In this document: positions 16,808 through 30,083 of the stretch, piece after piece
Layout of the letters: the number at the start of each line of letters is the position of its first letter
Position numbering within the stretch: the stretch's first letter is position 1
DNA from: Candidatus Thorarchaeota archaeon
Lineage (GTDB): Archaea; Asgardarchaeota; Thorarchaeia; Thorarchaeales; Thorarchaeaceae
Reading direction: 5' to 3'
Assembly (NCBI GenBank): GCA_011364985.1
Contig: RDOC01000003.1
Span: 64,001-128,000, forward strand
Length of the DNA stretch: 64,000 nucleotides
Program-made: the position numbers and the translations under genes
Notes under the pieces: generated by a model
What the model saw: the letters and a program-made list of their open reading frames with translations, nothing else
Databases searched by the model: none
What the model was told of the DNA's origin: nothing

Positions 16808-18379
16808 CTACTGCATCTGTCTTTCATCTTCGCGTTTCTTGAACATTCGCCATGAAAGCGTAAGTGTCTTTGGATGTGCTGCGGTATACTCATCGAGTTT
16901 GCGAAGAGCAGTAGAGTGTGGTGCCTCCATCACAATAGAGGGCGACTCATAGGCTTCCTTTGAAATCTGTTCCATTGCAGCGATGAAGAGGTCGAGTTCC
17001 TCCTTTGACTCGGTTTCTGTTGGTTCTATCATCAATGCCTCCGGAACAATGAGGGGGAAATAGACTGTAGGTGAATGTATTCCAAAATCAAGTAGACGCT
17101 TTGCCACATGCATGGTAGACACTCCAGTTTCATCATGGAGCTGCTCTGCAGAAATAACGCATTCATGCATCCTTGGAGCATCTTGAGAGTAGGGCAAGGT
17201 AAATCCTTTGATTTTTCTCACATGGTATGCTACATAGTTTGCATTCAGGACGGCATTCTCTGCAACACTAGAGATTCCTTGTTTGCCAAGTGAGTAGATG
17301 TAGCTATATGCCTTTACGAGAACTCCGAAGTTCCCGTAGAACCCATGTATTTTTCCAATAGACCTTGGTCTATCATACATCCATTTGAAAGCGCCATCAT
17401 CATCCTTGATAATTGTTGGTACTGGAAGGAACTTCTCCAAGTGCTTCTTGACACCTACCGCGCCTGCGCCGGGCCCGCCTCCACCGTGTGGTGTGGAAAA
17501 CGACTTGTGAAGATTCATGTGTACAACATCAAAACCCATGTCACCAGGACGAGTGATTCCCATTATCGCATTTAGATTGGCACCATCGTAATAGAGAAGG
17601 CCTCCAGCATCATGCACAATCCCTGCGATCTGATCTATGTCTTTCTCAAAAACACCAATTGTGTTAGGGTTTGTTAGCATGAGCCCGGCAGTCTTCGGAC
17701 CGGCTGAGGCTCTCAGTGCATCAAGATCAACAAGACCCTCATTACTTGAGGGAAGAACTACAACCTTATAGCCAGCCATGGCTGCAGAGGCGGGATTTGT
17801 TCCGTGGGCAGCGTCCGGAATAAGAATCTCATCGCGTTGTTCACACTCATGTGTTATGCATTTATGGTATTCGCGAATAATCGTGACTCCTGTATATTCG
17901 CCCTGCGCTCCTGCCGCAGGTTGAAGTGTGACTGCATCCATTCCAGTTATCTCTGCCAACCATCGCTGAAGTTCCCACATCAATTCCAATGCACCTTGAC
18001 AGTTGGAAACGTCCTGCAATGGGTGCAGCCATGAGAAGCCAGGAAGAGCGGCTGCCCATTCGCTAATAATAGGATTATACTTCATAGTGCAGCTACCAAG
18101 AGGATATGTACCTGAAGTTACCGAGAAGTTCATCTGAGAGAGTCGTGTGAAGTGGCGAACTACCTGTAATTCTGATAGCTCGGGTAAGATAGGAGGAGTG
18201 GACCGTTGCATCTCTCTTGGAATAACTAGGTCAATGGAACCAATTTCCTTCCTAATACCATCTCGAATCTTTGGATACTTGTGACTTATTTTGCCCTCAA
18301 CAGACTGCTCAAAGAGGAGGGGTTCCATCCACTTCGCCTGCCTAAACCGTGAATCGAGATCATCCATTCCCTTGGCCAC
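16808..18379 (-). CDS. gcvPB: glycine dehydrogenase (decarboxylating) subunit 2
   Basis: YPLGSCTMKYNP, AHGTNPASA, NLHKSFSTPHGGGGPG (PLP Lys), MIEPTETE. Confidence 0.96.
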   Translation of the reverse strand: MAKGMDDLDSRFRQAKWMEPLLFEQSVEGKISHKYPKIRDGIRKEIGSIDLVIPREMQRSTPPILPELSELQVVRHFTRLSQMNFSVTSGTYPLGSCTMKYNPIISEWAAALPGFSWLHPLQDVSNCQGALELMWELQRWLAEITGMDAVTLQPAAGAQGEYTGVTIIREYHKCITHECEQRDEILIPDAAHGTNPASAAMAGYKVVVLPSSNEGLVDLDALRASAGPKTAGLMLTNPNTIGVFEKDIDQIAGIVHDAGGLLYYDGANLNAIMGITRPGDMGFDVVHMNLHKSFSTPHGGGGPGAGAVGVKKHLEKFLPVPTIIKDDDGAFKWMYDRPRSIGKIHGFYGNFGVLVKAYSYIYSLGKQGISSVAENAVLNANYVAYHVRKIKGFTLPYSQDAPRMHECVISAEQLHDETGVSTMHVAKRLLDFGIHSPTVYFPLIVPEALMIEPTETESKEELDLFIAAMEQISKEAYESPSIVMEAPHSTALRKLDEYTAAHPKTLTLSWRMFKKREDERQMQ

Positions 18380-19779
18380 TACGTAGCACCTCCCTCATGA
18401 ACAATCTCTGCGACACAAGATGCCATCTCATCTATGACTTCTTTGGAGTGTTTTTCAGTTACACAGAACAGCATTGATTCCCCAAGTTCGGGAAACTCCT
18501 CTGTTAGTATCTTGCCACCATGCAAGTTTCTCTTTAGAAGCCCCTCATGAACGACTTGCGCACTCGTCCCATTTTCAAATCGAACTACAAACTCCTTCCA
18601 GAAGGCGTGACCGATAGCAGGAGCTTTGATGCCTTTGATTTCGTTTAGTTTCTTTGCTGCATAGTGAGACTTGTACGCTACTGCTTCGCCCAAATCCCGG
18701 AACGCACTTGGGCCCATAATCGCTGTGTAGACTGCTGCAGTAACTGCCATCAACGCCTGGTTAGAACAGATATTGCTGGTTGCCTTCTCCCTTCTGATGT
18801 GCTGTTCTCTCGGACTGAGTGTCAGCACATATCCACGTTCATATGGTTCTTCTTCGGTACGTGTCATTCCTACAAGTCGCCCAGGGAGCTGTCTTATGAG
18901 CTTCATATCATCCTTGCAGCCAAATACACCAAGAAATGGTCCCCCAAAGGAAACAGGAGAACCCAAGCCTTGTCCCTCGCCCACCACAATGTCAGCATCA
19001 TAGTCACCGGGAGCTCTGAGAATACCCAGAGACATGATGTCCGCACCAACGACGAACAGAACATCTGCATCATGAACCAAATCCGCTATCCTATCAACTT
19101 GACTTTCTATTAACCCTAGATAGGACGGATTCTCGATGTATACTCCAGCAACACCATTATTGAGCTTTGATTCAAGATCATCTAAGGACATTAGTCCTGT
19201 CTGCGTATCAAAATCCACCTTCTGAAGTTCTATTTCAAGAGGGTCTGTATAGGTCTTGGATACTCGGTAGTGGGAAGGATTGATTGATGCCGGTAGGAGA
19301 AACTTGGTGCGTCCCTTCTTTACGCGAGCACACATCAGGATTGCTTCAGCAAGACCACTAGCCATGTCATACATGCTGCTATTGACTACATCTACACGCA
19401 GTAGCTCAGCCATCATGCTTTGATATTCGAAAAGCGTCTGAAGCATTCCCTGACTAGTCTCTGGTTGATAACTGGTATAGGATGTAACGAGCTCTGATCG
19501 ACCTGCCAATGCAGGAACAGCAGCGGGGATGTAGTGCAGTGAGGCCCCAGCACCAAGGAAGACACGCCCATTGTCTGCAGACTTATTCCTAGATGCGAGT
19601 TCAGTGAGCCTCTGAACGACTTCCATCTCAGAATGAGAATCCGGCAATTCCAGTTCGTACTTAAGCCGGAATTCAGAGGGAATATTAGAAAAGAGGTCGC
19701 CAATCTCTTTCTTTCCCATGGATTGAAGCATCTCAGCTCGAATCTCTTCTGTCATTGGAATCCAAGGATGTTTCTCCAT
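18379..19779 (-). CDS. gcvPA: glycine dehydrogenase (decarboxylating) subunit 1
   Basis: YTSYQPETSQG.LQ..FEYQ, REQHIRREKATSNICSNQ. Confidence 0.96.
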   Translation of the reverse strand: MEKHPWIPMTEEIRAEMLQSMGKKEIGDLFSNIPSEFRLKYELELPDSHSEMEVVQRLTELASRNKSADNGRVFLGAGASLHYIPAAVPALAGRSELVTSYTSYQPETSQGMLQTLFEYQSMMAELLRVDVVNSSMYDMASGLAEAILMCARVKKGRTKFLLPASINPSHYRVSKTYTDPLEIELQKVDFDTQTGLMSLDDLESKLNNGVAGVYIENPSYLGLIESQVDRIADLVHDADVLFVVGADIMSLGILRAPGDYDADIVVGEGQGLGSPVSFGGPFLGVFGCKDDMKLIRQLPGRLVGMTRTEEEPYERGYVLTLSPREQHIRREKATSNICSNQALMAVTAAVYTAIMGPSAFRDLGEAVAYKSHYAAKKLNEIKGIKAPAIGHAFWKEFVVRFENGTSAQVVHEGLLKRNLHGGKILTEEFPELGESMLFCVTEKHSKEVIDEMASCVAEIVHEGGAT

Positions 19780-20977: not shown

Positions 20978-21823
20978 CTATTCCTTTTCTCTCACAATTG
21001 GCTGGGCATCTTCAGTCATATGAACCCTGAAAAGCCTCTTGACCTGAGATAGAACAAGGCGATTACCATTGACTAGTACATCTATCTCTACATGGTCACT
21101 AAGACCAGAAGTGGACAGTTTCTTCTCAAGCACAGCCTGTACCTGAAAGACACCAGCAGGATTGTCCATGCCAACGGTGAATCGAAGTGGCTTGTTACCT
21201 CTGTCAAGGTCAAGGTTTCGAATCGCCATAGCACTAACAGAGTGGATGTCAACCTTTCCCTTATGATAGGGGATGATTGTTCTACCCTTGGTAAGATCGC
21301 ACCCGTCTCCTATCTTTGTAAGTCCAGCTTCAAGCGTTAGGCACTGCGTGTCATCATCATGTGCATATATTCCATGGAGAATGAAGCTCATGATATCCGT
21401 GGCTACTGCCGGGTCAGAATAGATTTCCTTGAGCTTCTCTTCGAGAATGGGAGCAGCCAGAAGAATTGCAGCTTGAGGATGTTCGTTCCTATGAACAACC
21501 ATTCCGATATCATGGAGGTAGGTTGAAGCTAACACAACCAGACGGGCATCGTCAGTATCACCTATTCCTTCAGCCACGACATTTGGCTGAAAGGTTTCGT
21601 CAAGAATATCAAATGCTTTCAGAGCATACCATGTGGCAACCTCGGCATGCACAGGACCGTGGTCTGTATAGCCCAGGCGGGATACCGCCATTCGATTTGC
21701 AGTCTTGAGATAAGACTGTACTTTGGGGGAGCCTGATAGATACTGATACATCTCTAATGCCTTGGTATCGCTCTCTAGCAGTTCACGGACTCTTATCTCA
21801 TCGCGATTCAAGGATTCTCTCAT
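20978..21823 (-). CDS. HD-domain metal-dependent phosphohydrolase
   Basis: RLGYTDHGPVH, YLHDIG, DGCD..KGR, DIHSVSA. Confidence 0.88.
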   Translation of the reverse strand: MRESLNRDEIRVRELLESDTKALEMYQYLSGSPKVQSYLKTANRMAVSRLGYTDHGPVHAEVATWYALKAFDILDETFQPNVVAEGIGDTDDARLVVLASTYLHDIGMVVHRNEHPQAAILLAAPILEEKLKEIYSDPAVATDIMSFILHGIYAHDDDTQCLTLEAGLTKIGDGCDLTKGRTIIPYHKGKVDIHSVSAMAIRNLDLDRGNKPLRFTVGMDNPAGVFQVQAVLEKKLSTSGLSDHVEIDVLVNGNRLVLSQVKRLFRVHMTEDAQPIVREKE

Positions 21824-21895: not shown

Positions 21896-24868
21896 CTAGA
21901 TGTCCCCTGCTTCTTCCTGAATAGAAAGAAGTGTCCTATCTATTGCAGTCGTGGCCTTCTGAATGGTCTTGAGATAATCTTGGCGAGATTTTTCGAACGC
22001 TGTTGTACTAATTCGTTGCTTCTTCTTGCGAAGCAGAAGCTGCCTCAGCCCAGCTTTCGCACCCTCGATCTTCTCGTTTTGAAGCTCAAGCTGGCCCACC
22101 ATGTCGCGGTATTTTGCGCCATATTTTGAAAGCTCATCCTTGACCTCTGGCAGCCTTGAATCAATCTCCTCAAGCTGTGCCTTCAGATCTCGTTCTCGAA
22201 TCATGAACTCGCGCTTCTTGACCTTCCCTCTTCGTCTTGCAGCCTCAAGTTTGTCTAAGTCCAAGTTTAGCGCAGTCTTCTTTGAATACAGAGTGGCAAA
22301 CTCGCTCAATACTTCCAGTGGAGCACCCACTTGACGCTTCTCTGATGCAGTCTGCAAGTCATCCTCTTCGGACATAACTAATTCGGGTAGTTCTGTCATC
22401 CTATAGGCAATGTATGCTAATGCTACGAGGCAAATAATCATAGAAATCGCAAAAGGCCTTGCGCCAATATTGAGAGTTACTTGATAAAGCATTGTAATGC
22501 TGAGGGGGTTGTACTCACTGACATTATATGTTTCATACCTGAAAATTACATCGAATACGTCATAGAGCAGTCGATAACCTGGAGCTGCCTCAAGTGTGAC
22601 GAAAGAGAAGGGTACAACCACATCAAGAACATGATGCTTCACAAGCATCTCATCAATAGTACCTATCGGAATGGCAAGTAAGTTTGCTCCATCGGCTAGT
22701 TCTTCATGGGCCGATAGCTCGACTACATATTCGATATTGAAGGTGTACTTGAAGCCCGACGATAGACCTTCTTCACCAAAGCGGTCGCTAAGTAGCTCGA
22801 TAGTGACATATTGAGAAGAGTTGAAGTCACCCTTGATGTTAGTCATAGATTCCGCAAGAAGTCCAACTCCATCGTATATCCGAATCTCTGTTGCATAAGT
22901 TGGAAATTGGAAAATCACAGATTCTTCAGGGCTGGGGCCCACGTTATGAAGTGTAATGGTTTCCTTGTAGGCAAGCCAACCCCATGGATCAACACGTACA
23001 ACAGTGTTCTGTTCAGCAAAAAGCTCCGGATCATAAGACGTGAATTGTGCAGTAAACTCCTCTACAGTCATTGGTGAGAGGTTAGTGGTAGTAGTATCGG
23101 GAGCCTCGGTGCCAGATGCTTGCTGGTCACCAGTTTTGTACGTCAATACAAGACTTGCCTTGGTAAGGACATAAGGCACAACTGGATACTTTAGATAGGT
23201 TATGCTGTATTTCTTATTCACCGAACTCAAGAGCGTATCAAGAGAGTGCAGTTGTGTAACGGTGGAAAACACAAAGCTCTCATCATAATCTACCTGCTGG
23301 CTGAAGTGTATCTTCCAGTGAAGCATTCCATTGGGGCTGGGAATATTGGTCATCTTTAGGATAGTTCCTGATGCATCACGTGCTTCAATACTAAGGAAGT
23401 AGGAAGTCCACTTTGCAGGAAGATACAACTCGAGGGCTGAGAAGGGGGTTGAACCGTTATTATGTACAGTAAAGATGTCGCTTACATACGTTCGGTGGTA
23501 GATCTCGGTGATTACCTCACGGCTGACACTTATTTTGGCACCAAGAACAGGAATGTAAGGACGATCTATTGTCACATCGATTTGCACAACACTGCTCATA
23601 TTTGAGGGATCAGTAGCATTGAATGATATCGTGTGGGGACCGTTTTCATACTCTGTCGACTCTAACACTTCCTCCCAAAACCCGGAAAGGAAGTTGTAGG
23701 ACATGTCATTCCAGTTAGAATCATCTATCTTGTACTTTACACTTCGCACATAGGTGTCCGCTGCATCAACCTGGAATGTTTCAAGCAGCCCAAGAACGGC
23801 ACCTTGTGTTGGATGCAGGAGATTGATTTGAGGAGGTACATTTGGTAAGAAGCTCATCAAAGCAGGATATGCCCAGTGTGTGCGCTCCAAAGGTATCTCA
23901 TTGAAGTCTTCAGTAGAGCCATACATGAAAATGAAAGGATATACCAAGTCGGGATCTGCAATCAAAGAGATGTCATTTGTATCTGTGCTGTTCATAACGA
24001 TGACATACTCGATTATTGTAGTCGATCCCGTGTCAGATGCATTCACGGCCACAATCCGACTCTGATTCTCATCTTCGAGGTGCTGGAGAGTACTTACCCC
24101 ATGCTGGTCATTATAGACAACTTGGCTGCTGAGAGCGGGATCTTCTGTATGAGTCAGGTCATTTCTAGTAATTCGAGTGAGTGTAATCACATATTCGAGG
24201 TCTTGACCGTATAGCTCGTGGCTGGGAGAAGTATAGGCCTGATCTGCTGGGATAATGAAATGGCGCACCTCTCCAATTCTCATGCCATAAATCATGTCTT
24301 TGTACATCTGAAGACAAGACAGCTTCTCCAATTGCTCAGTAGACTCGATTGAGGGGTAGTCATTTTCTTGATATACTGTTCCATTGCGTAACGATAGAAC
24401 ATAATGCACGGTTACAATGTCGGTACCAATTACCCTCCAGTAGTCCTCAGAAGGAGTACCTGGAGCATATCCGTAGACCAAGTCGCTATTGTTCAGACCG
24501 GCAACAGAGAATGAATCGGTATAGTTCTGCCAACCAAAGCCAATCCAGCCGGATGTATTTGCCAAAAGGCCAATGTAGAGCGTAGTTCCATTGTGTTCGA
24601 TATAGGCAGTGATTCCAGTACTCGGATCTGTATAGTCGCTTGCGTATTCGTAGGGGTCAATGATACCATCAGCTGAACCATAGTGCTTGTCCACGTAGGG
24701 AATCGTGAGATTGTTTGCTGATTCTGCAATGGACTGCTGCACAGAGTTCACGACGAAGGTATCTTCAACCGTTAGATTATCAGGAGCAGATACTAATGTC
24801 ATTGTACTGGTAGTCACAAACAAAGCCAGTAGCACAATTGTTGCAATTCTTCTATACAGCAAGCTCAA
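21896..24868 (-). CDS. ribophorin I (Ost1)-like type I membrane protein with N-terminal DOMON-like, FKBP-like and Ig-like domains
   Basis: signal peptide; two beta-rich repeats including VRVDPWGWLAYKETITLHN.G and DRFG....SGFKYTFNIEY; single TM; cytosolic coiled coil; many N-x-S/T sequons. Confidence 0.75.
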   Translation of the reverse strand: MSLLYRRIATIVLLALFVTTSTMTLVSAPDNLTVEDTFVVNSVQQSIAESANNLTIPYVDKHYGSADGIIDPYEYASDYTDPSTGITAYIEHNGTTLYIGLLANTSGWIGFGWQNYTDSFSVAGLNNSDLVYGYAPGTPSEDYWRVIGTDIVTVHYVLSLRNGTVYQENDYPSIESTEQLEKLSCLQMYKDMIYGMRIGEVRHFIIPADQAYTSPSHELYGQDLEYVITLTRITRNDLTHTEDPALSSQVVYNDQHGVSTLQHLEDENQSRIVAVNASDTGSTTIIEYVIVMNSTDTNDISLIADPDLVYPFIFMYGSTEDFNEIPLERTHWAYPALMSFLPNVPPQINLLHPTQGAVLGLLETFQVDAADTYVRSVKYKIDDSNWNDMSYNFLSGFWEEVLESTEYENGPHTISFNATDPSNMSSVVQIDVTIDRPYIPVLGAKISVSREVITEIYHRTYVSDIFTVHNNGSTPFSALELYLPAKWTSYFLSIEARDASGTILKMTNIPSPNGMLHWKIHFSQQVDYDESFVFSTVTQLHSLDTLLSSVNKKYSITYLKYPVVPYVLTKASLVLTYKTGDQQASGTEAPDTTTTNLSPMTVEEFTAQFTSYDPELFAEQNTVVRVDPWGWLAYKETITLHNVGPSPEESVIFQFPTYATEIRIYDGVGLLAESMTNIKGDFNSSQYVTIELLSDRFGEEGLSSGFKYTFNIEYVVELSAHEELADGANLLAIPIGTIDEMLVKHHVLDVVVPFSFVTLEAAPGYRLLYDVFDVIFRYETYNVSEYNPLSITMLYQVTLNIGARPFAISMIICLVALAYIAYRMTELPELVMSEEDDLQTASEKRQVGAPLEVLSEFATLYSKKTALNLDLDKLEAARRRGKVKKREFMIRERDLKAQLEEIDSRLPEVKDELSKYGAKYRDMVGQLELQNEKIEGAKAGLRQLLLRKKKQRISTTAFEKSRQDYLKTIQKATTAIDRTLLSIQEEAGDI

Positions 24869-25071
24869 TCCGAATCACCATGTTGTTATGGGGTCGAAGC
24901 AGACTATAGTCTTGTCTAGCCACAAACGAATCGCTCGAATTTCGAGAGTCGTTAAATAGATTTCGTACCATCAAGCAATGCACTATTACCAATCCACAAA
25001 TCTCAAGAGCCAACCTGATTCCGGAAATATGAAATGAAATCAGATTTCGCCCTGAGACAGGAGACGAAGAT

Positions 25072-26091
25072 ATGCTACAAATCATTCTCGCCATAGTAAT
25101 TGCTTTTCTCGTGGTGTTTCTCTCGATACCAAGGACTATTGAAATCCTGAAAGAGAAAGGGATCATCGGCGTAGATGTCCATAAACCAAATCAGCCTGAG
25201 GTGGCAAAGGGTGGTGGTTTCATCGTTCTCTTCGCCATTGTAGCTGCCCTCTTGGTTGTGATAGGCTTCATCCGATTTCAAGCTCAAGAGGTGAACTCTG
25301 GATTACTTGCTGCTCTTGTATCCATTCTTATGGCTGGGATGATAGGTCTCCTAGATGATATCTTGGATTTCAATACTCGAACAAAAATTGTTCTCCCGCT
25401 TATAGCATCAATTCCAATGCTAGTGATGCAAGTGGGAACTACGACAATGTCCATTCCAATTATCGGAACCGTTGACTTAGGAGTGATCTACCCACTCGTG
25501 ATTGTTCCCTTAATGATGACATTCATAATTGACTCAACAAATATGTATGGCGGCATGAATGGGCTTGAAACTGGATTAGCAACCATTAATGCATCATCCC
25601 TATTGCTCTACATTCTCTTCGCTCCTCTTTTCACAAATGTTGAGAACACATCTCAATTGATGGATGCTGGAATTGTATCGGGAGCATTACTTGGTGCCGC
25701 ACTTGCCTTCATGTTCTTCAACAAATGCCCAGCAAGAATTCTGCCTGGTGATGTTGGTAGACTTCCACTTGGGGCGACAATGGCAGCTGCATTGATTCTG
25801 GGAAATATGGATCGACTCGCTGTGATTCTATACATACCCTTTTTGATTAACTTCATGTTGTACTTGCTTTATCGAATTCATGTGAAGCGCACCAGAATGG
25901 AATATATCAAGTTCGCAACTCCTCGTAATGATGGAACACTAGAAGTCCCAGGTCCGTTCACTATGTACTGGTTATTGCCGTATCTATCAAATGGAATTAC
26001 TGAAAAGAGGAATGTGATCTTGCTTCTTCTATTGCAGGCCATTCTAGCATATGGCGGTGTCGTAATTCTTCTCTTTGGAATTCCATTCTAA
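25072..26091 (+). CDS. UDP-GlcNAc:dolichyl-phosphate GlcNAc-1-phosphate transferase (AglH/DPAGT1, MraY superfamily)
   Basis: GVDVHKP...EVA.GGG, GLLDD, NMYGGMNGLE, FNKCPARILPGDVG; multi-TM. Confidence 0.88.
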   Translation: MLQIILAIVIAFLVVFLSIPRTIEILKEKGIIGVDVHKPNQPEVAKGGGFIVLFAIVAALLVVIGFIRFQAQEVNSGLLAALVSILMAGMIGLLDDILDFNTRTKIVLPLIASIPMLVMQVGTTTMSIPIIGTVDLGVIYPLVIVPLMMTFIIDSTNMYGGMNGLETGLATINASSLLLYILFAPLFTNVENTSQLMDAGIVSGALLGAALAFMFFNKCPARILPGDVGRLPLGATMAAALILGNMDRLAVILYIPFLINFMLYLLYRIHVKRTRMEYIKFATPRNDGTLEVPGPFTMYWLLPYLSNGITEKRNVILLLLLQAILAYGGVVILLFGIPF

Positions 26092-26100
26092 GTGGATTGC

Positions 26101-27156
26101 TTAGGGAAGTTTCTCTTTAAGATAGGTATCGACAACATAATCCATTCCATGTCTGCTGAAAGCCTGTTGCTCTGCCTTAGAACGAAGTTCTCGGAAGGCC
26201 TTGATATAATCCTGCCAGACAGGTCCCGCATATCGAACGTCATGAAGAAGCTCATCGAGACGTTTTAGGTCTGCATTGTTCATCGGTTCTGTGGGAAGGC
26301 TGTGATTCACTATGTCGCTAGGCGTGACACCAATCCACTCAGCATCAGGTACGGCTAATCCTCTTAGATGCGCAGAATTCGCACTGCCACCGATTATGAC
26401 ACGAGCTATATGCATTCCCCATGGGTCACCGTCTGTGAATATGAAGATGGGCAGTTCCAGCTCCTCACGAAGTCTCCTCATTAGACTACGTGTAGCTCTT
26501 GGCGGCTGTCCTCCAAGATGAATAAGGACCGCCTGATATCGCTTCCAAGCTCCTGTTTCTATTAGCCTGGAAAACATCCCACCTGACTCAATAGCAAGAA
26601 TGATCTCTGCTGAGGCATCCACAGGCTTAGCAGTCATCAAGGCACGACCTATGGGAAATCCATCAGGACTTGCAGTGAGGCAGACCTCCTGATTCTCGTA
26701 TCCTGATACTGTGTAACGCATTCTTACATCGCCAAATATGGAGGAACGCTCTTCAGGAAATATCCCAAAGTTCTCCCTTGCGAGTCCAGTGAGTGTTTCT
26801 AGATCAGTAACAATTCTGTCAGATTCGGCTTGGTTCGAGAATTTTACTCCATAGGCCTCGCTGGAATAATAGAGATCTCGAAGCGAACTTGTCCGTTGAG
26901 CACTTGTCAACTTTTTTGCAAAATAGGCAACCCATATCAATTGTGCAAAGCTTCTTACATGCCTGAGATTGCTTGAGTCGCGAGTGGTACTGGAATCACC
27001 AAGAACGAATTGATTGGTTACGCCATCATAGACAATGTTATCTGTGCTGCGATCAGGGAAATGGAGAGATGGAAATTCGCCTTCAAGAATTGCATCCATA
27101 ACATCTCGCCCTATTGATGTGAGCGTCTTCACTGTACTTTCTTTACTCATCTTCAC
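26101..27156 (-). CDS. top6A: DNA topoisomerase VI subunit A
   Basis: SLRDLYY catalytic Tyr, AIESGGMF, FTDGDPWG Toprim, KAEQQAF. Confidence 0.95.
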   Translation of the reverse strand: MKMSKESTVKTLTSIGRDVMDAILEGEFPSLHFPDRSTDNIVYDGVTNQFVLGDSSTTRDSSNLRHVRSFAQLIWVAYFAKKLTSAQRTSSLRDLYYSSEAYGVKFSNQAESDRIVTDLETLTGLARENFGIFPEERSSIFGDVRMRYTVSGYENQEVCLTASPDGFPIGRALMTAKPVDASAEIILAIESGGMFSRLIETGAWKRYQAVLIHLGGQPPRATRSLMRRLREELELPIFIFTDGDPWGMHIARVIIGGSANSAHLRGLAVPDAEWIGVTPSDIVNHSLPTEPMNNADLKRLDELLHDVRYAGPVWQDYIKAFRELRSKAEQQAFSRHGMDYVVDTYLKEKLP

Positions 27157-28660
27157 TCACCTCGAACAGCCTTTGAACTATGTGTTCTGTAGGCGGCGGA
27201 GAATCAAAATCAGCCAATTCGGATCCGTATTTTGCAACAATTCCTATAAGCTCGGAGTATTCACGGCGTTTCTTAACGTTTCTAGCTGCTGCTCCGCCTG
27301 AGGATACCTTCTTACTAAGAAATCGTCCGAGGACCTTCAGAAGCAATGATGTCTCTCTTTCAATTTCCATAATATGAGCCAATGATTGCTTGCCAGTTGC
27401 TCGATAGGGTATCCTAGTTGATGACACATTCAAGAATAGCGCAGCCGGTTGAGGCTTTGAGAAACCATACCTGCGCCAGCTAGTCTGTCTAACCACCTTC
27501 GTAAAAATATCCTCACTTGCATCGTATAGTAAGGGAACACGGTTCGCCATTCTATATAGAGTAGGTGTATCAGACACAGAAAATGAATCCCCTACTGCCA
27601 ATACGCCTTCAAGTATGACAGGGTTCCCTTGCCACTCAAACACACCCTGACGTCCATAGGATAAGAAGCTCGTATTGAATGTGGAACGTACTCCTGCAGT
27701 AAATGATGCTTCGCCAATTGGACTTAGACATTTGCTATCCGGACTACAGAACCCATCATAGTGACGCATGCCTTGACATAATCGAGAGATATCTTGACGC
27801 GTTAGTACATCAAGTGGAGTTTTCGGATCAATGTTCATGAACGCAAGAAGTTTTGACGCAGTTCTTGTTCCCAATTGTTGAAAGGATGTGACCAAGAAAT
27901 CGCGAATTGTAGTACTCTCACACTCATTCAGGAGTCTTTGTATGAGTTCAACATCGACAGCCCTTGGATGAGGTTTCACAGGAATAGATGTCTTTGGTGC
28001 CTCACTTGTCCAAGGCCCTATACAACCCTGGATTTCATCGTCTATGTTGAATATAATACGTGCATTTGGCGTGCCAACTGTGGTTAGGCGAAGGTATTCC
28101 AGAACTCGTTCTTGTGCACGTTTGAGATCGCCTTTGAAGCATATACTCACGGAAGTTCCCAAGGAATGTTGTCTCTTCGTGGTTTCGCTCAGCAGGATGG
28201 GAGCATTCTTTTCAATATCAATGAGGAGTCGGTAAGCCCTTCCTAGCCCTTCACCGAATCGAGTACAAATCAGAACTGGAGAGTCGGTTGTGATTTGACC
28301 ATAAAGGATAGCCATTGTCACTCCGAGACCAAATGTACCCCGCTTTTGCCTTCGTTCGTATTTGCTACCATAGAGTATCCTTCCAAAGGCTTGAGCAACC
28401 TCATCGTAGGGCAAACCAGTTCCATTGTCCTTAACAGTGACGGTGACATTATCCGAGTCCTCATCGACTATCTTGATACGTATCTCTGGCGCTTTGCCAG
28501 CATCTTCGCATGCATCAAGGCCGTTTTCAATTAGTTCTCTTACTGTTGAGTATACGGCTTGTGTAGGATTACCAAAGCCGGCCATCTGACGATTTCGATA
28601 GAAGAATTCAGCAGGAGATATGCCTGAGAACTTTTGGACCGATCGCTCTTGGGAACTCAT
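27143..28660 (-). CDS. top6B: DNA topoisomerase VI subunit B
   Basis: ISPAEFFYRN, RELIENGLDA, DNGTG GHKL motifs, KPHP, ANRVPLLY, IPY...GKQS. Confidence 0.94.
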   Translation of the reverse strand: MSSQERSVQKFSGISPAEFFYRNRQMAGFGNPTQAVYSTVRELIENGLDACEDAGKAPEIRIKIVDEDSDNVTVTVKDNGTGLPYDEVAQAFGRILYGSKYERRQKRGTFGLGVTMAILYGQITTDSPVLICTRFGEGLGRAYRLLIDIEKNAPILLSETTKRQHSLGTSVSICFKGDLKRAQERVLEYLRLTTVGTPNARIIFNIDDEIQGCIGPWTSEAPKTSIPVKPHPRAVDVELIQRLLNECESTTIRDFLVTSFQQLGTRTASKLLAFMNIDPKTPLDVLTRQDISRLCQGMRHYDGFCSPDSKCLSPIGEASFTAGVRSTFNTSFLSYGRQGVFEWQGNPVILEGVLAVGDSFSVSDTPTLYRMANRVPLLYDASEDIFTKVVRQTSWRRYGFSKPQPAALFLNVSSTRIPYRATGKQSLAHIMEIERETSLLLKVLGRFLSKKVSSGGAAARNVKKRREYSELIGIVAKYGSELADFDSPPPTEHIVQRLFEVSEDE

Positions 28661-28719: not shown

Positions 28720-29286
28720 TCAAAGGTCTGTATTCTCCCATAACTCGGTCTGGGCACGTTTCATGTGACGTCTCATACGTTCAAGCTGGGAGTACACAGC
28801 ACTGTGTGGAGCCCCGCCAATGAGCATATTTACAGCTCTCTGAGCATAGTCGATGCCGGGGTCAAAGCCTATAATTGAAACTGTCCTTCCATACACTGCA
28901 ATCTTTGTTTCTGTGATTTCCTCAATAACACGACGAGTACGACCACTTTCACCAATGATCCGTCCAGCGACTCGCTTGAGTTGATTTGCAGACGTTCCAA
29001 CGGATTCCCGTAGTGAGATAACTATTAATCTTGCATCTTCATCTATAAGCCCGAGAGCGTTCTTTGGACTGAACCCACGAGCCATTGCGCGTACTATGTC
29101 CTTGGCCTTCCAAGCAAGAACTGGGTCGTCGGTACTATCTGAGCCAGTGATTGTTACAAGACCCTCGGAGCCAACCTCAATTATAGTATTTGTAAGCTGT
29201 TCCACTCTTCGCTTTACTTTGCCATTACGACCGACGATTACTCCCACTCTATCAACAGGAACCCTGAGAGTTTCGTGATATATCAT
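28720..29286 (-). CDS. KH-domain ribosome-biogenesis protein (Pno1/Dim2)
   Basis: RVGVIVGRNG, ARGFSP, GRIIGESGRTR, GAPHSAVY. Confidence 0.9.
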   Translation of the reverse strand: MIYHETLRVPVDRVGVIVGRNGKVKRRVEQLTNTIIEVGSEGLVTITGSDSTDDPVLAWKAKDIVRAMARGFSPKNALGLIDEDARLIVISLRESVGTSANQLKRVAGRIIGESGRTRRVIEEITETKIAVYGRTVSIIGFDPGIDYAQRAVNMLIGGAPHSAVYSQLERMRRHMKRAQTELWENTDL

Positions 29287-30083
29287 TTGTTTTCACCAGA
29301 GGCTAGAATATGGTTTGTAATTATTTTCGGCTCTTCAGTGTCTACGCCCAGTTTTTTGAAGAAATTGCAGAGGTTTTGAATATCACGGTATAGATATTTG
29401 CTCGCATTATCATGACTCGTGAGAACAGATTGTGAAACGTCAATGATTATTGGTTGATTGAGCCATAGTATATTGTATTCACTAAGGTCTGCATGAACAA
29501 GATTCGCGGACTTATATGCCAATTCTACGAAACCAATAATCTCGTTAAATGTTTTGACAGGAGAGGGAATCGTGACATTTTTGAGTAGGGGAGCAGGTGT
29601 GACAGTCTTCTTGTCACCAATGAATTCCATTACGACTACATTTCGCTCAATATCAATTGGATGTGGTACAGGTACTCCTGCTTCGTAGAATCTCTGGAGG
29701 TTCTTGTACTCTTTCATAGCCCATTGAGGAATTAGTACTCTACTACGTCGCCGAACACGTCTGAACCTGGGGTCTCCGACGATATACTCAAGCATGAAAT
29801 CAGTCTCTGCTGTACTCATTCGATAAATCTTGACTGCAACAGGTGTCCCATCACCTGCCTCGCCTCTGTACACATTGGCTTCCTTTCCGGCACTTATTAC
29901 CCCATGGACCGCTTGTAGTACTCCGCGATTAAGAAGCTTGTAGAGAATTTTGAGTGTCGGAGGATCAATGACACCCTCAACGACCTTGAACTCATCAGAA
30001 TCCATGCGTCGTTTCATCTTTCGGCGGTCAAGCTCTGATAGAATTCGCTCATGTTCTTTTTCACCTCTATCCATCCAGAGCAC
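29283..30083 (-). CDS. rio1: serine/threonine kinase RIO1
   Basis: ISAGKEANVY, AVKIY, YIVGDPRF, LVHADLSEYNIL, IIDVSQSV. Confidence 0.93.
   Translation of the reverse strand: MLWMDRGEKEHERILSELDRRKMKRRMDSDEFKVVEGVIDPPTLKILYKLLNRGVLQAVHGVISAGKEANVYRGEAGDGTPVAVKIYRMSTAETDFMLEYIVGDPRFRRVRRRSRVLIPQWAMKEYKNLQRFYEAGVPVPHPIDIERNVVVMEFIGDKKTVTPAPLLKNVTIPSPVKTFNEIIGFVELAYKSANLVHADLSEYNILWLNQPIIIDVSQSVLTSHDNASKYLYRDIQNLCNFFKKLGVDTEEPKIITNHILASGENK

Follow-up and report, generated by a model that had tools for sequence, protein, structure and literature searches.

Ribophorin I (RPN1/Ost1, OST1) counts among the eukaryotic-signature proteins found in Asgard archaea. The eukaryotic RPN1/Ost1 chains and the short OST1 proteins of Asgard archaea have a common plan, consisting of a signal peptide, two beta-sandwich domains, one transmembrane (TM) helix and a four-helix bundle. 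The cytoplasmic domain of OST1 from the Lokiarchaeon MK-D1 (8WHN) binds eukaryotic ribosomes (PMC11417166), and in animals and rice ribophorin I is bound by the lectin malectin (PMC9144812).

Human FKBP11 (PDB 9YGY), which has a signal peptide, an FKBP domain, a TM helix and a short tail, binds the ribosome–Sec61–OST-A translocon; its pocket is buried there by CCDC134, and an isomerase role at this place is disputed by the authors of that work (PMC12804085). A combination of an FKBP with a second domain by insertion is known from SlyD and from archaeal FKBPs carrying an insert-in-flap (IF) chaperone domain. PpiD and PrsA are membrane-tethered extracytoplasmic peptidyl-prolyl isomerases (PPIases) beside the bacterial Sec translocon; they are of the parvulin type and have their own anchors.

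The locus described here lies in a 64,000-nt stretch of DNA (the window) from Candidatus Thorarchaeota archaeon (Asgardarchaeota; Thorarchaeia; Thorarchaeales; Thorarchaeaceae in GTDB), comprising positions 64,001–128,000 of the forward strand of contig RDOC01000003.1 (assembly GCA_011364985.1). It encodes a long form of ribophorin I which, unlike the RPN1/Ost1 chains and the Asgard OST1 proteins of 566–638 aa, carries about 410 extra N-terminal residues, made up of a DOMON-like domain that harbors an FKBP domain, followed by an Ig-like domain.

The long-form gene

The gene occupies 21896..24868 on the minus strand and encodes 990 aa plus a stop. The reading frame is open over its whole length, as the first-pass annotation of the window had indicated, and each of the domains listed there was recovered with edges within about 10 residues. 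The start codon is TTG; the orthologues have ATG at the same position and a matching signal peptide. Full-length orthologues of 967–1001 aa, with 47–83% identity, occur in Thorarchaeota MAGs, and no second OST1 copy was found in the genome of the window. The structure models used have a pLDDT of 87.0, with a pTM of 0.80, and a pLDDT of 89.7.

The signal peptide (residues about 1–28; 24785..24868, minus strand) has an RR n-region and a hydrophobic core at residues 8–27, where hydropathy peaks, and ends in VSA/P; the orthologues share this N-terminus.

In public records, long-form proteins are named 'FKBP-type peptidyl-prolyl isomerase', 'Ig-like domain-containing protein' or 'hypothetical protein'. 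Surveys of OST subunits that rely on names or single Pfam hits may thus miss them.

The ribophorin I half and its topology

Two beta-sandwich domains of the ribophorin I luminal type, at residues about 438–612 and 613–797 (22478..23557, minus strand), were recognized by Foldseek, VIA and Pfam. In the Foldseek search with the ribophorin half, ranks 1–8 are all RPN1 or Ost1 (E 6.6e-28 to 4.6e-19), headed by human RPN1 (8b6l_O, E 6.6e-28), and rank 9 follows at E 2.5e-8. The corresponding VIA comparisons gave Z scores of 26–31 with 368–518 residues aligned, far better than the 13.7 obtained with N-terminal domains of aminopeptidases. For this half, ribophorin I is a much better match than the aminopeptidase or S-layer folds named as the alternative in the first-pass annotation. 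The RPN1/Ost1 matches extend over both luminal domains, the TM helix and the four-helix bundle; with RPN1 the match is full-length. At the sequence level, the Pfam model Ribophorin_I (PF04597) does not match the protein of the window at E<=1, whereas it matches 12 of 32 orthologues (best 9.6e-10). It also recognizes the short-form homologues P0140 and P0141, with 62 and 53 bits (cut-off 25), and these short Asgard proteins align to residues about 445–987 of the long form with E 1e-37.

The TM helix (residues about 798–826; 22391..22477, minus strand) coincides with a hydropathy peak at 797–825 and a helix at 800–825 in the model. Across the 32 orthologues, 461 N-X-S/T sequons are located N-terminal to this helix and 0 C-terminal to it; N115, N126, N471, N683 and N782 are invariant. 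With a signal peptide, a single TM helix following the luminal domains and a cytosolic C-terminus, the protein has type I topology.

The C-terminal part, residues 847–990 (21899..22330, minus strand), had been annotated as a cytosolic coiled coil. The location stands; the fold is instead a four-helix bundle, with four helices within residues 851–987 of the model; its homologues are the domains with which Lokiarchaeon OST1 and mammalian RPN1 bind the ribosome. Against 8WHN, phmmer gave E 4.9e-6, and structural superposition gave Z 18.8 and an rmsd of 1.7 over 141 of 142 residues. The bundle is the best-conserved portion of the protein (79%). The gene product is a genuine ribophorin I/OST1 orthologue and the sole one found in its genome.

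An FKBP domain inserted in a DOMON-like domain

The FKBP-type PPIase domain comprises residues about 142–238 (24155..24445, minus strand) and is located in a hairpin loop of the DOMON-like domain. Pfam FKBP_C (PF00254) matches residues 149–230 with 24.7 bits (gathering cut-off 21.1) and is found in 30 of 32 orthologues (best 6.1e-10). The FKBP fold on which the first-pass annotation had staked its reading is indeed adopted by residues 142–238, as seen from VIA matches to SlyD (3cgm; Z 12.5, rmsd 1.8, 85 residues aligned) and FKBP13 (4nnr; Z 11.4, rmsd 2.1, 92 residues aligned, 22% identity).

The pocket was compared at the positions of FKBP12 Y26, F36, D37, F46, V55, I56, W59, Y82, H87, I91 and F99. 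No variation is seen at Y156, L186, Y189, Y212 and Y226, and of the 32 orthologues 29 have H217 and 30 have L219. The equivalents of Y26, Y82 and H87 are retained, W59 and F99 are replaced by Tyr and I56 and I91 by Leu, all invariantly or nearly so, and the position of F36 is taken by Ile, Leu, Phe or Tyr. In the main family the equivalent of D37 is Gln (31/32) and that of F46 is Ser (29/32), due to which the domain may be a less efficient catalyst and a weaker binder of FK506. The divergent orthologue P0125 has the canonical F36–D37, V55–I56, Y82 and F99.

The DOMON-like host is split into residues about 52–141 (24446..24715, minus strand) and about 239–342 (23843..24154, minus strand), the end of the second part being set by the ranges of the fold matches. 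These VIA matches all span residues about 52–342 across the insert, with ethylbenzene dehydrogenase gamma (EbdC, 2ivf_C; Z 15.6, 164 residues aligned), NxrC (7b04_C; Z 15.0), the DOMON of DBH (4zel; Z 13.2), and the CDH cytochrome domain (1d7c) and CBM9 (1i82), both at Z 12.0. A PF03351 cluster of the ESM Atlas matches with TM 0.52 and rmsd 1.8 over 163 aligned residues. Direct Pfam DOMON matches are weak and confined to 3 of 32 orthologues (best 5.5e-4), and a PDB search with a profile yielded no DOMON chain at E<=10. A more direct indication comes from P0175, an uninterrupted Pfam-DOMON protein (PF03351, 60.4 bits; cut-off 32.7). BLASTP aligns residues 56–135 of the long form to its residues 380–465 (E 1e-16) and residues 254–317 to 471–533 (E 7e-6). 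Since these two stretches match adjoining stretches of P0175, the FKBP is proven to be an insertion in a DOMON domain, as the two DOMON-like halves in the annotation implied.

The analysis also bears out the earlier remark that heme ligands show no clear conservation. The only near-invariant His and Met residues in the DOMON of the main family are H92, H263 and M315; in the long-form orthologue P0125 these positions carry Q, R and A. A heme site in the DOMON is improbable.

An Ig-like domain of the Big_7 type (residues 343–437; 23558..23842, minus strand) serves as spacer between this module and the ribophorin core. In the sequence of the window Big_7 (PF17957) scores 17.2 bits, under the cut-off of 24.1, and 17 of 32 orthologues match (best 1.5e-10). 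The fold is supported by a VIA match of residues 346–437 to 6tn6 with Z 13.7.

Distribution, gene neighbourhood and relatives of the insert

The long form is present in nearly all genomes of the order to which the window belongs (73/76, plus 1/1), with one copy per genome and ORFs of 981–1034 aa, except for one stop-to-stop frame of 1233 aa. In every other Asgard family sampled, OST1 is the short form, likewise in single copy. The survey of the architecture across Asgard genomes that had been proposed in the first-pass annotation thus places the long form in this order alone, and within the families sampled the gain of DOMON, FKBP and Ig is restricted to one order. Among orthologues the mean identity is 71% for DOMON-a, which is the most conserved extracellular portion, 64% for the FKBP and 41–45% for the ribophorin domains. 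An FKBP nested in a DOMON sandwich was found nowhere else in a search of 1.84 billion representative proteins or in the large ESM Atlas clusters.

Divergently oriented to OST1 is a gene (25072..26091, plus strand) for a UDP-GlcNAc:dolichyl-phosphate GlcNAc-1-P transferase-like protein of the Alg7/DPAGT1/AglH type. It matches Pfam Glycos_transf_4 (2e-27), and among relatives of solved structure human DPAGT1 comes first (E 4.5e-16), with MraY at E 4.8e-11. The 203-bp intergenic region (24869..25071) presumably is a shared promoter region, and the arrangement is conserved. The Alg7-like gene is found in 79 of 81 genomes of the order, in nearly all of them at ~300–400 bp from the OST1 start, and the divergent pairing is kept across 17 genera. 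Of 5 other Asgard genomes, 3 have it no more than 5 kb from the short-form OST1. STT3 (927 aa) is encoded in 12 of 12 genomes of the same genus; the assembly that contains the window, which is 74% complete, yielded no STT3.

The closest relatives of the insert among the matches listed are small proteins from other Asgard families, with a signal peptide, an FKBP domain and a TM helix. They share the motif GM.IGE..F.VP.E.GYT.P.H.LYG with the insert and have a canonical FKBP pocket, including F36–D37. For the order of the window, no full-length stand-alone form is among the matches listed, and no genomic link of the stand-alone genes to OST or Sec genes was seen. Other PPIase genes found in five genomes of the family encode a long-type FKBP, a cyclophilin and a small parvulin. 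These lack a signal peptide in the copies examined and look cytosolic, and no second extracytoplasmic PPIase was found in the five genomes. In a paralogue that lacks ribophorin, this module is mounted on a plain TM anchor, which speaks for the module working as a unit outside the cytoplasm.

Proposed function and alternatives

The reading that we prefer, with a probability of roughly 0.6, is that the insert is a foldase or chaperone of the FKBP type, located outside the cytoplasm and tethered to the OST–Sec–ribosome site. In its favour are the strong constraint on the added module and its aromatic pocket, the relatives of the insert with signal peptide and TM anchor, the paralogue with the free module and the FKBP11 precedent; against it count the Gln and Ser in place of D37 and F46, the failure to find STT3 in the window's assembly and the lack of a genomic link between the stand-alone FKBP genes and OST or Sec genes. 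The protein is a type I membrane glycoprotein whose cytosolic C-terminal bundle would dock on the ribosome, as judged by homology, and whose two ribophorin domains, on the outer side, would be neighbours of AglB/STT3 and the Sec channel. On top of these, the order-specific distal module consists of the Ig spacer, the DOMON-like sandwich and the FKBP in the DOMON loop. The FKBP would most likely act as prolyl isomerase or holding chaperone for chains that leave the translocon during glycosylation, standing in for the free membrane-anchored FKBP of other Asgard lineages. The DOMON would serve as rigid scaffold, possibly with a glycan- or peptide-binding surface.

Alternatively, the insert may bind without catalysing, as an adaptor whose proline pocket grips a fixed partner such as an AglB loop, another OST subunit or a surface-layer protein, with a role in OST assembly or regulation in place of client folding. 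We regard this as unlikely, even though the main family has Gln and Ser in place of D37 and F46 while the aromatic pocket is invariant, the pTM of 0.80 suggests a rigid DOMON–FKBP–Ig unit, and human FKBP11 is itself an adaptor with a buried pocket at the translocon (PMC12804085). P0125 and the stand-alone relatives retain the canonical pocket, F36–D37 included, no candidate partner has been identified, and the insert is the sole extracytoplasmic PPIase domain found in the five genomes. In addition, FKBP catalysis is not known to rest on one essential residue. It is less probable still that the whole module is a ligand-binding surface decoration, for glycans, heme redox chemistry or adhesion, for which OST1 is a mere anchor and whose main job is separate from the folding of nascent chains. 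Such a role would fit the binding of heme or sugars by DOMON-like folds, of which EbdC, NxrC, the CDH cytochrome domain and CBM9 were matched, the high conservation of DOMON-a and the paralogue lacking ribophorin, and the binding of malectin to ribophorin I makes a glycan-binding function at OST plausible. However, P0125 does not have the candidate heme ligands, an FKBP is without obvious use in redox chemistry or adhesion, and the fusion has supplanted the short form, being now the only OST1, and is retained by virtually all genomes of the order, which argues for a role tied to OST1.

That the protein is no OST subunit at all, and is a cell-surface protein that shares beta-sandwich folds with ribophorin I, is highly improbable. 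The failure of the Ribophorin_I model on the window's sequence and the similarity of the second luminal domain to N-terminal domains of aminopeptidases (Z 13–14) would agree with it. These are outweighed by the RPN1/Ost1 matches over luminal domains, TM and bundle, by the tail homologous to 8WHN, by the Pfam matches of orthologues and short forms, by the single copy in place of the short form and by the adjoining Alg7-like gene.

Comparison of the tethered foldase with described systems brings out likeness and difference. As with FKBP11, an exoplasmic FKBP would be held by the OST/translocon on a ribosome-contacting protein, here by homology, and the topology of FKBP11 recurs in the stand-alone Asgard relatives. 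Unlike FKBP11, the Thorarchaeota FKBP lacks a private TM helix and belongs to the OST1 chain itself, nested in the DOMON, and the likeness is thus one of working principle. A specific sequence affinity to FKBP11 was not found; higher scores were obtained with FKBP2, wheat FKBP73 and archaeal FKBPs. By analogy, the FKBP11 precedent cuts both ways for a foldase role. The malectin–ribophorin I complex (PMC9144812) likewise places a carbohydrate-module-like beta-sandwich on ribophorin I, at the luminal or extracytoplasmic side, although malectin is a separate protein of another fold family. The DOMON-like fold includes the sugar-binding CBM9, and glycan binding by the Thorarchaeota DOMON is putative. 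With PpiD and PrsA, the long form would have in common a PPIase or chaperone domain anchored at the outer membrane face where secreted chains emerge, while these bacterial proteins have no tie to glycosylation machinery. Compared to SlyD the topology is reversed, with the FKBP of ~97 residues being the guest in a DOMON host and lacking an IF domain.

Implications

The first-pass annotation had suggested that a folding catalyst is coupled to N-glycosylation, in a way that resembles the endoplasmic reticulum (ER). The case for such coupling is strengthened by the order-wide conservation, by the better conservation of the added module as compared to the ribophorin core, by the Alg7-like neighbour and by the fact that no other extracytoplasmic PPIase was found in the five genomes. 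Since a single Asgard order has the fusion, the resemblance to the ER would be one of analogy, without shown descent, and the fusion has little direct bearing on the eukaryotic ancestor.

A wider interpretation can be envisaged, in which the small proteins with signal peptide, FKBP and TM from several Asgard families are translocon- or OST-associated prokaryotic counterparts of FKBP11, the Thorarchaeota fixed this partnership by insertion into OST1 (a Rosetta-stone argument), and the coupling of an isomerase or chaperone, perhaps also of a lectin-like domain, predates the ER. We consider this speculative and rather doubtful. If true, the coupling of a PPIase or chaperone to co-translational N-glycosylation would be older than the ER.

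For the biology of Asgard archaea, the fusion in this order is a natural experiment on the role of OST1. A folding-type domain that was fused to it, is kept in essentially every genome and is better conserved than the core argues for a position of archaeal OST1 at the exit of unfolded chains, and for an ER-like coupling of folding help and N-glycosylation at that place. It also leads to the prediction that, in other Asgard lineages, the free FKBPs with a membrane anchor should act at the Sec–OST–ribosome site, as human FKBP11 does.

Gene and membrane topology

The long-form ribophorin I/OST1 gene is a single open reading frame of 990 codons on the minus strand (21896–24868) that begins with TTG, a start that is credible since ATG occupies this position in the orthologues, which carry a similar signal peptide. 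Public data hold more than 200 full-length relatives of 930–1001 aa, most of them labelled as Candidatus Thorarchaeota MAGs, the closest having 83% identity to the window protein. Hydropathy analysis gave two hydrophobic segments, at residues 8–27 and about 797–825. Among 32 orthologues, 461 N-X-S/T sequons precede the TM helix and none occurs in the 164-residue tail, those at N115, N126, N471, N683 and N782 being invariant. This split around the TM helix is consistent with a type I glycoprotein whose N-terminal module is extracellular and whose helical bundle is cytosolic.

Identity of the C-terminal half

The first-pass annotation had assigned the C-terminal half to ribophorin I, with an S-layer or aminopeptidase fold as the alternative, and the assignment to ribophorin I holds. 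With an AlphaFold2 model of residues 436–990 (64 sequences, pLDDT 89.7), the top eight Foldseek matches are RPN1/Ost1 chains of yeast OST and of human OST-A and OST-B (E 6.6e-28 to 4.6e-19), and the first match after these reaches only E 2.5e-8. In VIA-align structural alignments, the RPN1/Ost1 chains gave Z 26–31 as compared to Z 13–14 for the best unrelated tier, the N-terminal domain of M1 aminopeptidases, and up to 518 residues of the human OST-A chains were aligned, TM helix and cytosolic bundle included. The tail (residues 847–980) matches crystal structure 8WHN in sequence (E 4.9e-6) and in fold (Z 18.8, rmsd 1.7, 141 of 142 residues); 8WHN is the cytoplasmic domain of the Prometheoarchaeum MK-D1 OST1, a domain that binds eukaryotic ribosomes (PMC11417166). 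The long-form protein is a type I membrane glycoprotein with a ribosome-docking-type tail inside and an FKBP/DOMON/Ig module outside.

On the window protein alone, FKBP_C was the sole Pfam or NCBIfam match above cut-off, Ribophorin_I and DOMON not being directly detected, so that orthologues, profiles and folds were needed to recognize these two. Pfam Ribophorin_I matches 12 of the 32 orthologues, and also Asgard proteins of 560–575 aa that align with residues 446–986 of the window protein. No other OST1 was found in the window's genome, and the long form is thus the orthologue rather than a side copy. The protein is an OST1 orthologue, and the reading that it would not be an OST subunit at all is effectively excluded.

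An FKBP domain nested in a DOMON sandwich

The N-terminal part was modelled separately (residues 40–440, pLDDT 87.0, pTM 0.80). Ig-domain matches dominate when this model is compared to the PDB with Foldseek, and it was an exhaustive VIA search that separated three domains. The DOMON-like sandwich (about residues 52–342) matches ethylbenzene dehydrogenase gamma (Z 15.6), NxrC (Z 15.0), the DOMON domain of dopamine beta-hydroxylase (Z 13.2), and the cytochrome domain of cellobiose dehydrogenase and CBM9 (both Z 12.0). Residues 142–238 match the FKBPs SlyD (Z 12.5) and FKBP13 (Z 11.4), and an Ig-like domain follows at residues 343–437 (Z 13.7). Pfam FKBP_C, above cut-off on the window protein, matches 30 of the 32 orthologues.

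P0175, a Pfam-DOMON protein with no interruption (60 bits on PF03351), aligns with residues 56–135 and then, after six residues of its own chain, with residues 254–317; these two consecutive stretches place the FKBP in a hairpin loop of the DOMON sandwich. A search of the ESM Atlas yielded a plain DOMON cluster (100% Pfam DOMON), which aligns over the span 52–342 at rmsd 1.8, and no cluster in which DOMON and FKBP are combined. At E ≤ 10, a profile of the N-module retrieved only FKBPs from the PDB sequences and no DOMON chain.

Distribution and paralogues

The OST1 core was found in 284 of 301 sampled genomes of the phylum, mostly in single copy. In the window's order the OST1 frames measure 981–1034 aa, except for one stop-to-stop frame of 1233 aa, and in every other sampled family of the phylum 566–638 aa. 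The complete N-module is present in 73 of 76 genomes of the window's family, covering 16 genera, and in the single genome of the sister family; beyond the order, only matches to single domains of the module were obtained. In the few genomes that lack it, the OST1 core and its neighbour gene are also absent or present as pieces at contig ends, which points to assembly gaps.

Among 1.84 billion proteins covered by a representative search, DOMON and FKBP are combined only in long-form OST1 and in a few paralogues of 567–586 aa. In the latter, a signal peptide precedes the DOMON–FKBP unit, Ig, an additional Ig-like domain and a plain C-terminal TM anchor, and the ribophorin part is missing. Paralogues of this kind (567–598 aa), to which P0128, P0132, P0133 and the loci G299:C125:6294-7427 and G179:C23:20704-21867 (genome, contig and positions) belong, occur in only a few genomes. 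A tree of the N-module that compares the OST1-borne copies with the TM-anchored paralogues of 567–586 aa has long branches, lacks resolution at its base and does not place the paralogues; it implies no order of events.

Gene neighbourhood

Divergently transcribed from OST1 is a Glycos_transf_4 gene (25072–26091, plus strand), with human DPAGT1 (E 4.5e-16) as the best solved relative of its product and MraY behind; judged from sequence, it encodes an Alg7/AglH-type (DPAGT1-like) enzyme predicted to initiate lipid-linked oligosaccharide synthesis. This neighbour was found in 79 of 81 genomes of the order, in nearly all at about 300–400 bp from the OST1 start and on the opposite strand. Of five other Asgard genomes, three also have an Alg7-like gene within 5 kb of short-form OST1, which lacks the N-module, and in one of these three the two genes are divergent and adjacent (G038:C1:2334222-2336935). 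Since such a pair exists with the short form, the gene pair is older than the fusion.

A frame of 104 codons (24852–25166, minus strand), which spans the divergent intergenic region and runs into the start of OST1, has no Pfam match and is probably not a gene. Downstream of OST1, at 72 bp and on the same strand, a 281-aa protein is encoded (20978–21823, minus strand) that has a weak HD-domain match (E 0.005) and no NCBIfam match. Housekeeping genes flank the region at 16808–19779, 26101–28660 and 28720–30083, all on the minus strand; they encode subunits 1 and 2 of the glycine cleavage P-protein, topoisomerase VI A and B, a KH-domain protein and, after it, a RIO kinase. The window's own assembly comprises 1.70 Mb in 22 contigs and is 74% complete; its parvulin gene is apparently split over two adjacent frames (C17:215546-215852). 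STT3/AglB was not found in this assembly, which we attribute to its 74% completeness since all 12 same-genus genomes encode an STT3/AglB of about 927 aa.

Stand-alone FKBPs and comparison with known systems

Five genomes of the window's family have two FKBP domains each, the OST1 insert and that of a long-type FKBP (about 260 aa), of which the copy examined (locus L011) has no signal peptide. Neither do the cyclophilin and parvulin copies examined carry one, so that in these five genomes no extracytoplasmic PPIase domain other than the insert was found. Elsewhere among the Asgard families, the insert is best matched by proteins of 175–260 aa with a signal peptide, an FKBP domain, a C-terminal TM helix and a short cytosolic tail; the tail is Cys-rich and zinc-ribbon-like in one family and rich in Lys/Arg in a second one. 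Copies of 175–235 aa are encoded at L030:606-1130, L028:656-1291, L029:535-1176 and L032:610-1236 (plus strand) and at L031:465-1169 (minus strand). The motif GM.IGE..F.VP.E.GYT.P.H.LYG is common to these proteins and the insert. A profile built from five of the proteins detected full-length copies from five families or more, and for nearly all of the genomes listed in the window's order its top match is the OST1 insert, in frames of about 985–1000 aa. Around two of the stand-alone genes no link to OST or Sec was seen, the neighbours being RNAP, ParB, AAA, VWA, MFS, response regulator and PAC2 genes.

The signal peptide–FKBP–TM layout is also that of human FKBP11, which is bound to the ribosome–Sec61–OST-A translocon via its FKBP on the lumenal side, its TM helix and a basic tail that binds the ribosome (PMC12804085). 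The stand-alone profile has no special affinity to FKBP11 nor to ER FKBPs as a group, and we therefore regard the likeness as a parallel and not as shown homology. Asgard OST1 (PMC10307638; PMC11417166) and a malectin–ribophorin I complex (PMC9144812) were already known. An OST1 carrying a PPIase is not described in the literature searched, of which the coverage is incomplete so that absence is not proven, and the same literature yielded no FKBP nested in a DOMON domain, no order-wide replacement of short-form OST1, and no connection with a clade of membrane-anchored, extracytoplasmic FKBPs from Asgard archaea.

Constraint and possible role of the module

Sequence constraint on the acquired N-module exceeds that on the ribophorin core. 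Mean identity to the window protein is 79% for the cytosolic bundle, 71% and 49% for the first and second parts of DOMON, 64% for the FKBP, 43% for Ig and 41–45% for the ribophorin domains. FKBP12-equivalent pocket positions were mapped via a HMMER alignment to FKBP13. Y26, Y82 and H87 (FKBP12 numbering) are kept in the insert, W59 and F99 are replaced by Y and I56 and I91 by L (invariant or nearly so), and in the main family D37 is replaced by Q and F46 by S. P0125, the long-form orthologue that diverges most (33% identity, FKBP_C 50.8 bits), retains F36-D37, V55-I56, Y82 and F99. A degenerate FKBP in some congeners, such as genome G242 with a Pfam match below cut-off, was rejected since pocket residues are retained there. 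P0125 has Q, R and A in place of the near-invariant H92, H263 and M315 of the main family, so that a pair of axial heme ligands conserved across the order is improbable.

It is in the light of this pocket, with both its kept and its replaced positions, that a rival reading has to be weighed in which the FKBP would be a non-catalytic adaptor, by analogy with the apparent role of FKBP11 in the GRP94 complex. Another rival takes the whole N-module as a ligand-binding decoration without a role in folding.

In the folding-related reading that we prefer, OST1 would be placed with AglB beside SecYE-beta on translating ribosomes, as family knowledge suggests. The DOMON sandwich would position the FKBP and may itself bind glycan or peptide, and the FKBP may act on emerging chains as an isomerase or a holding chaperone.
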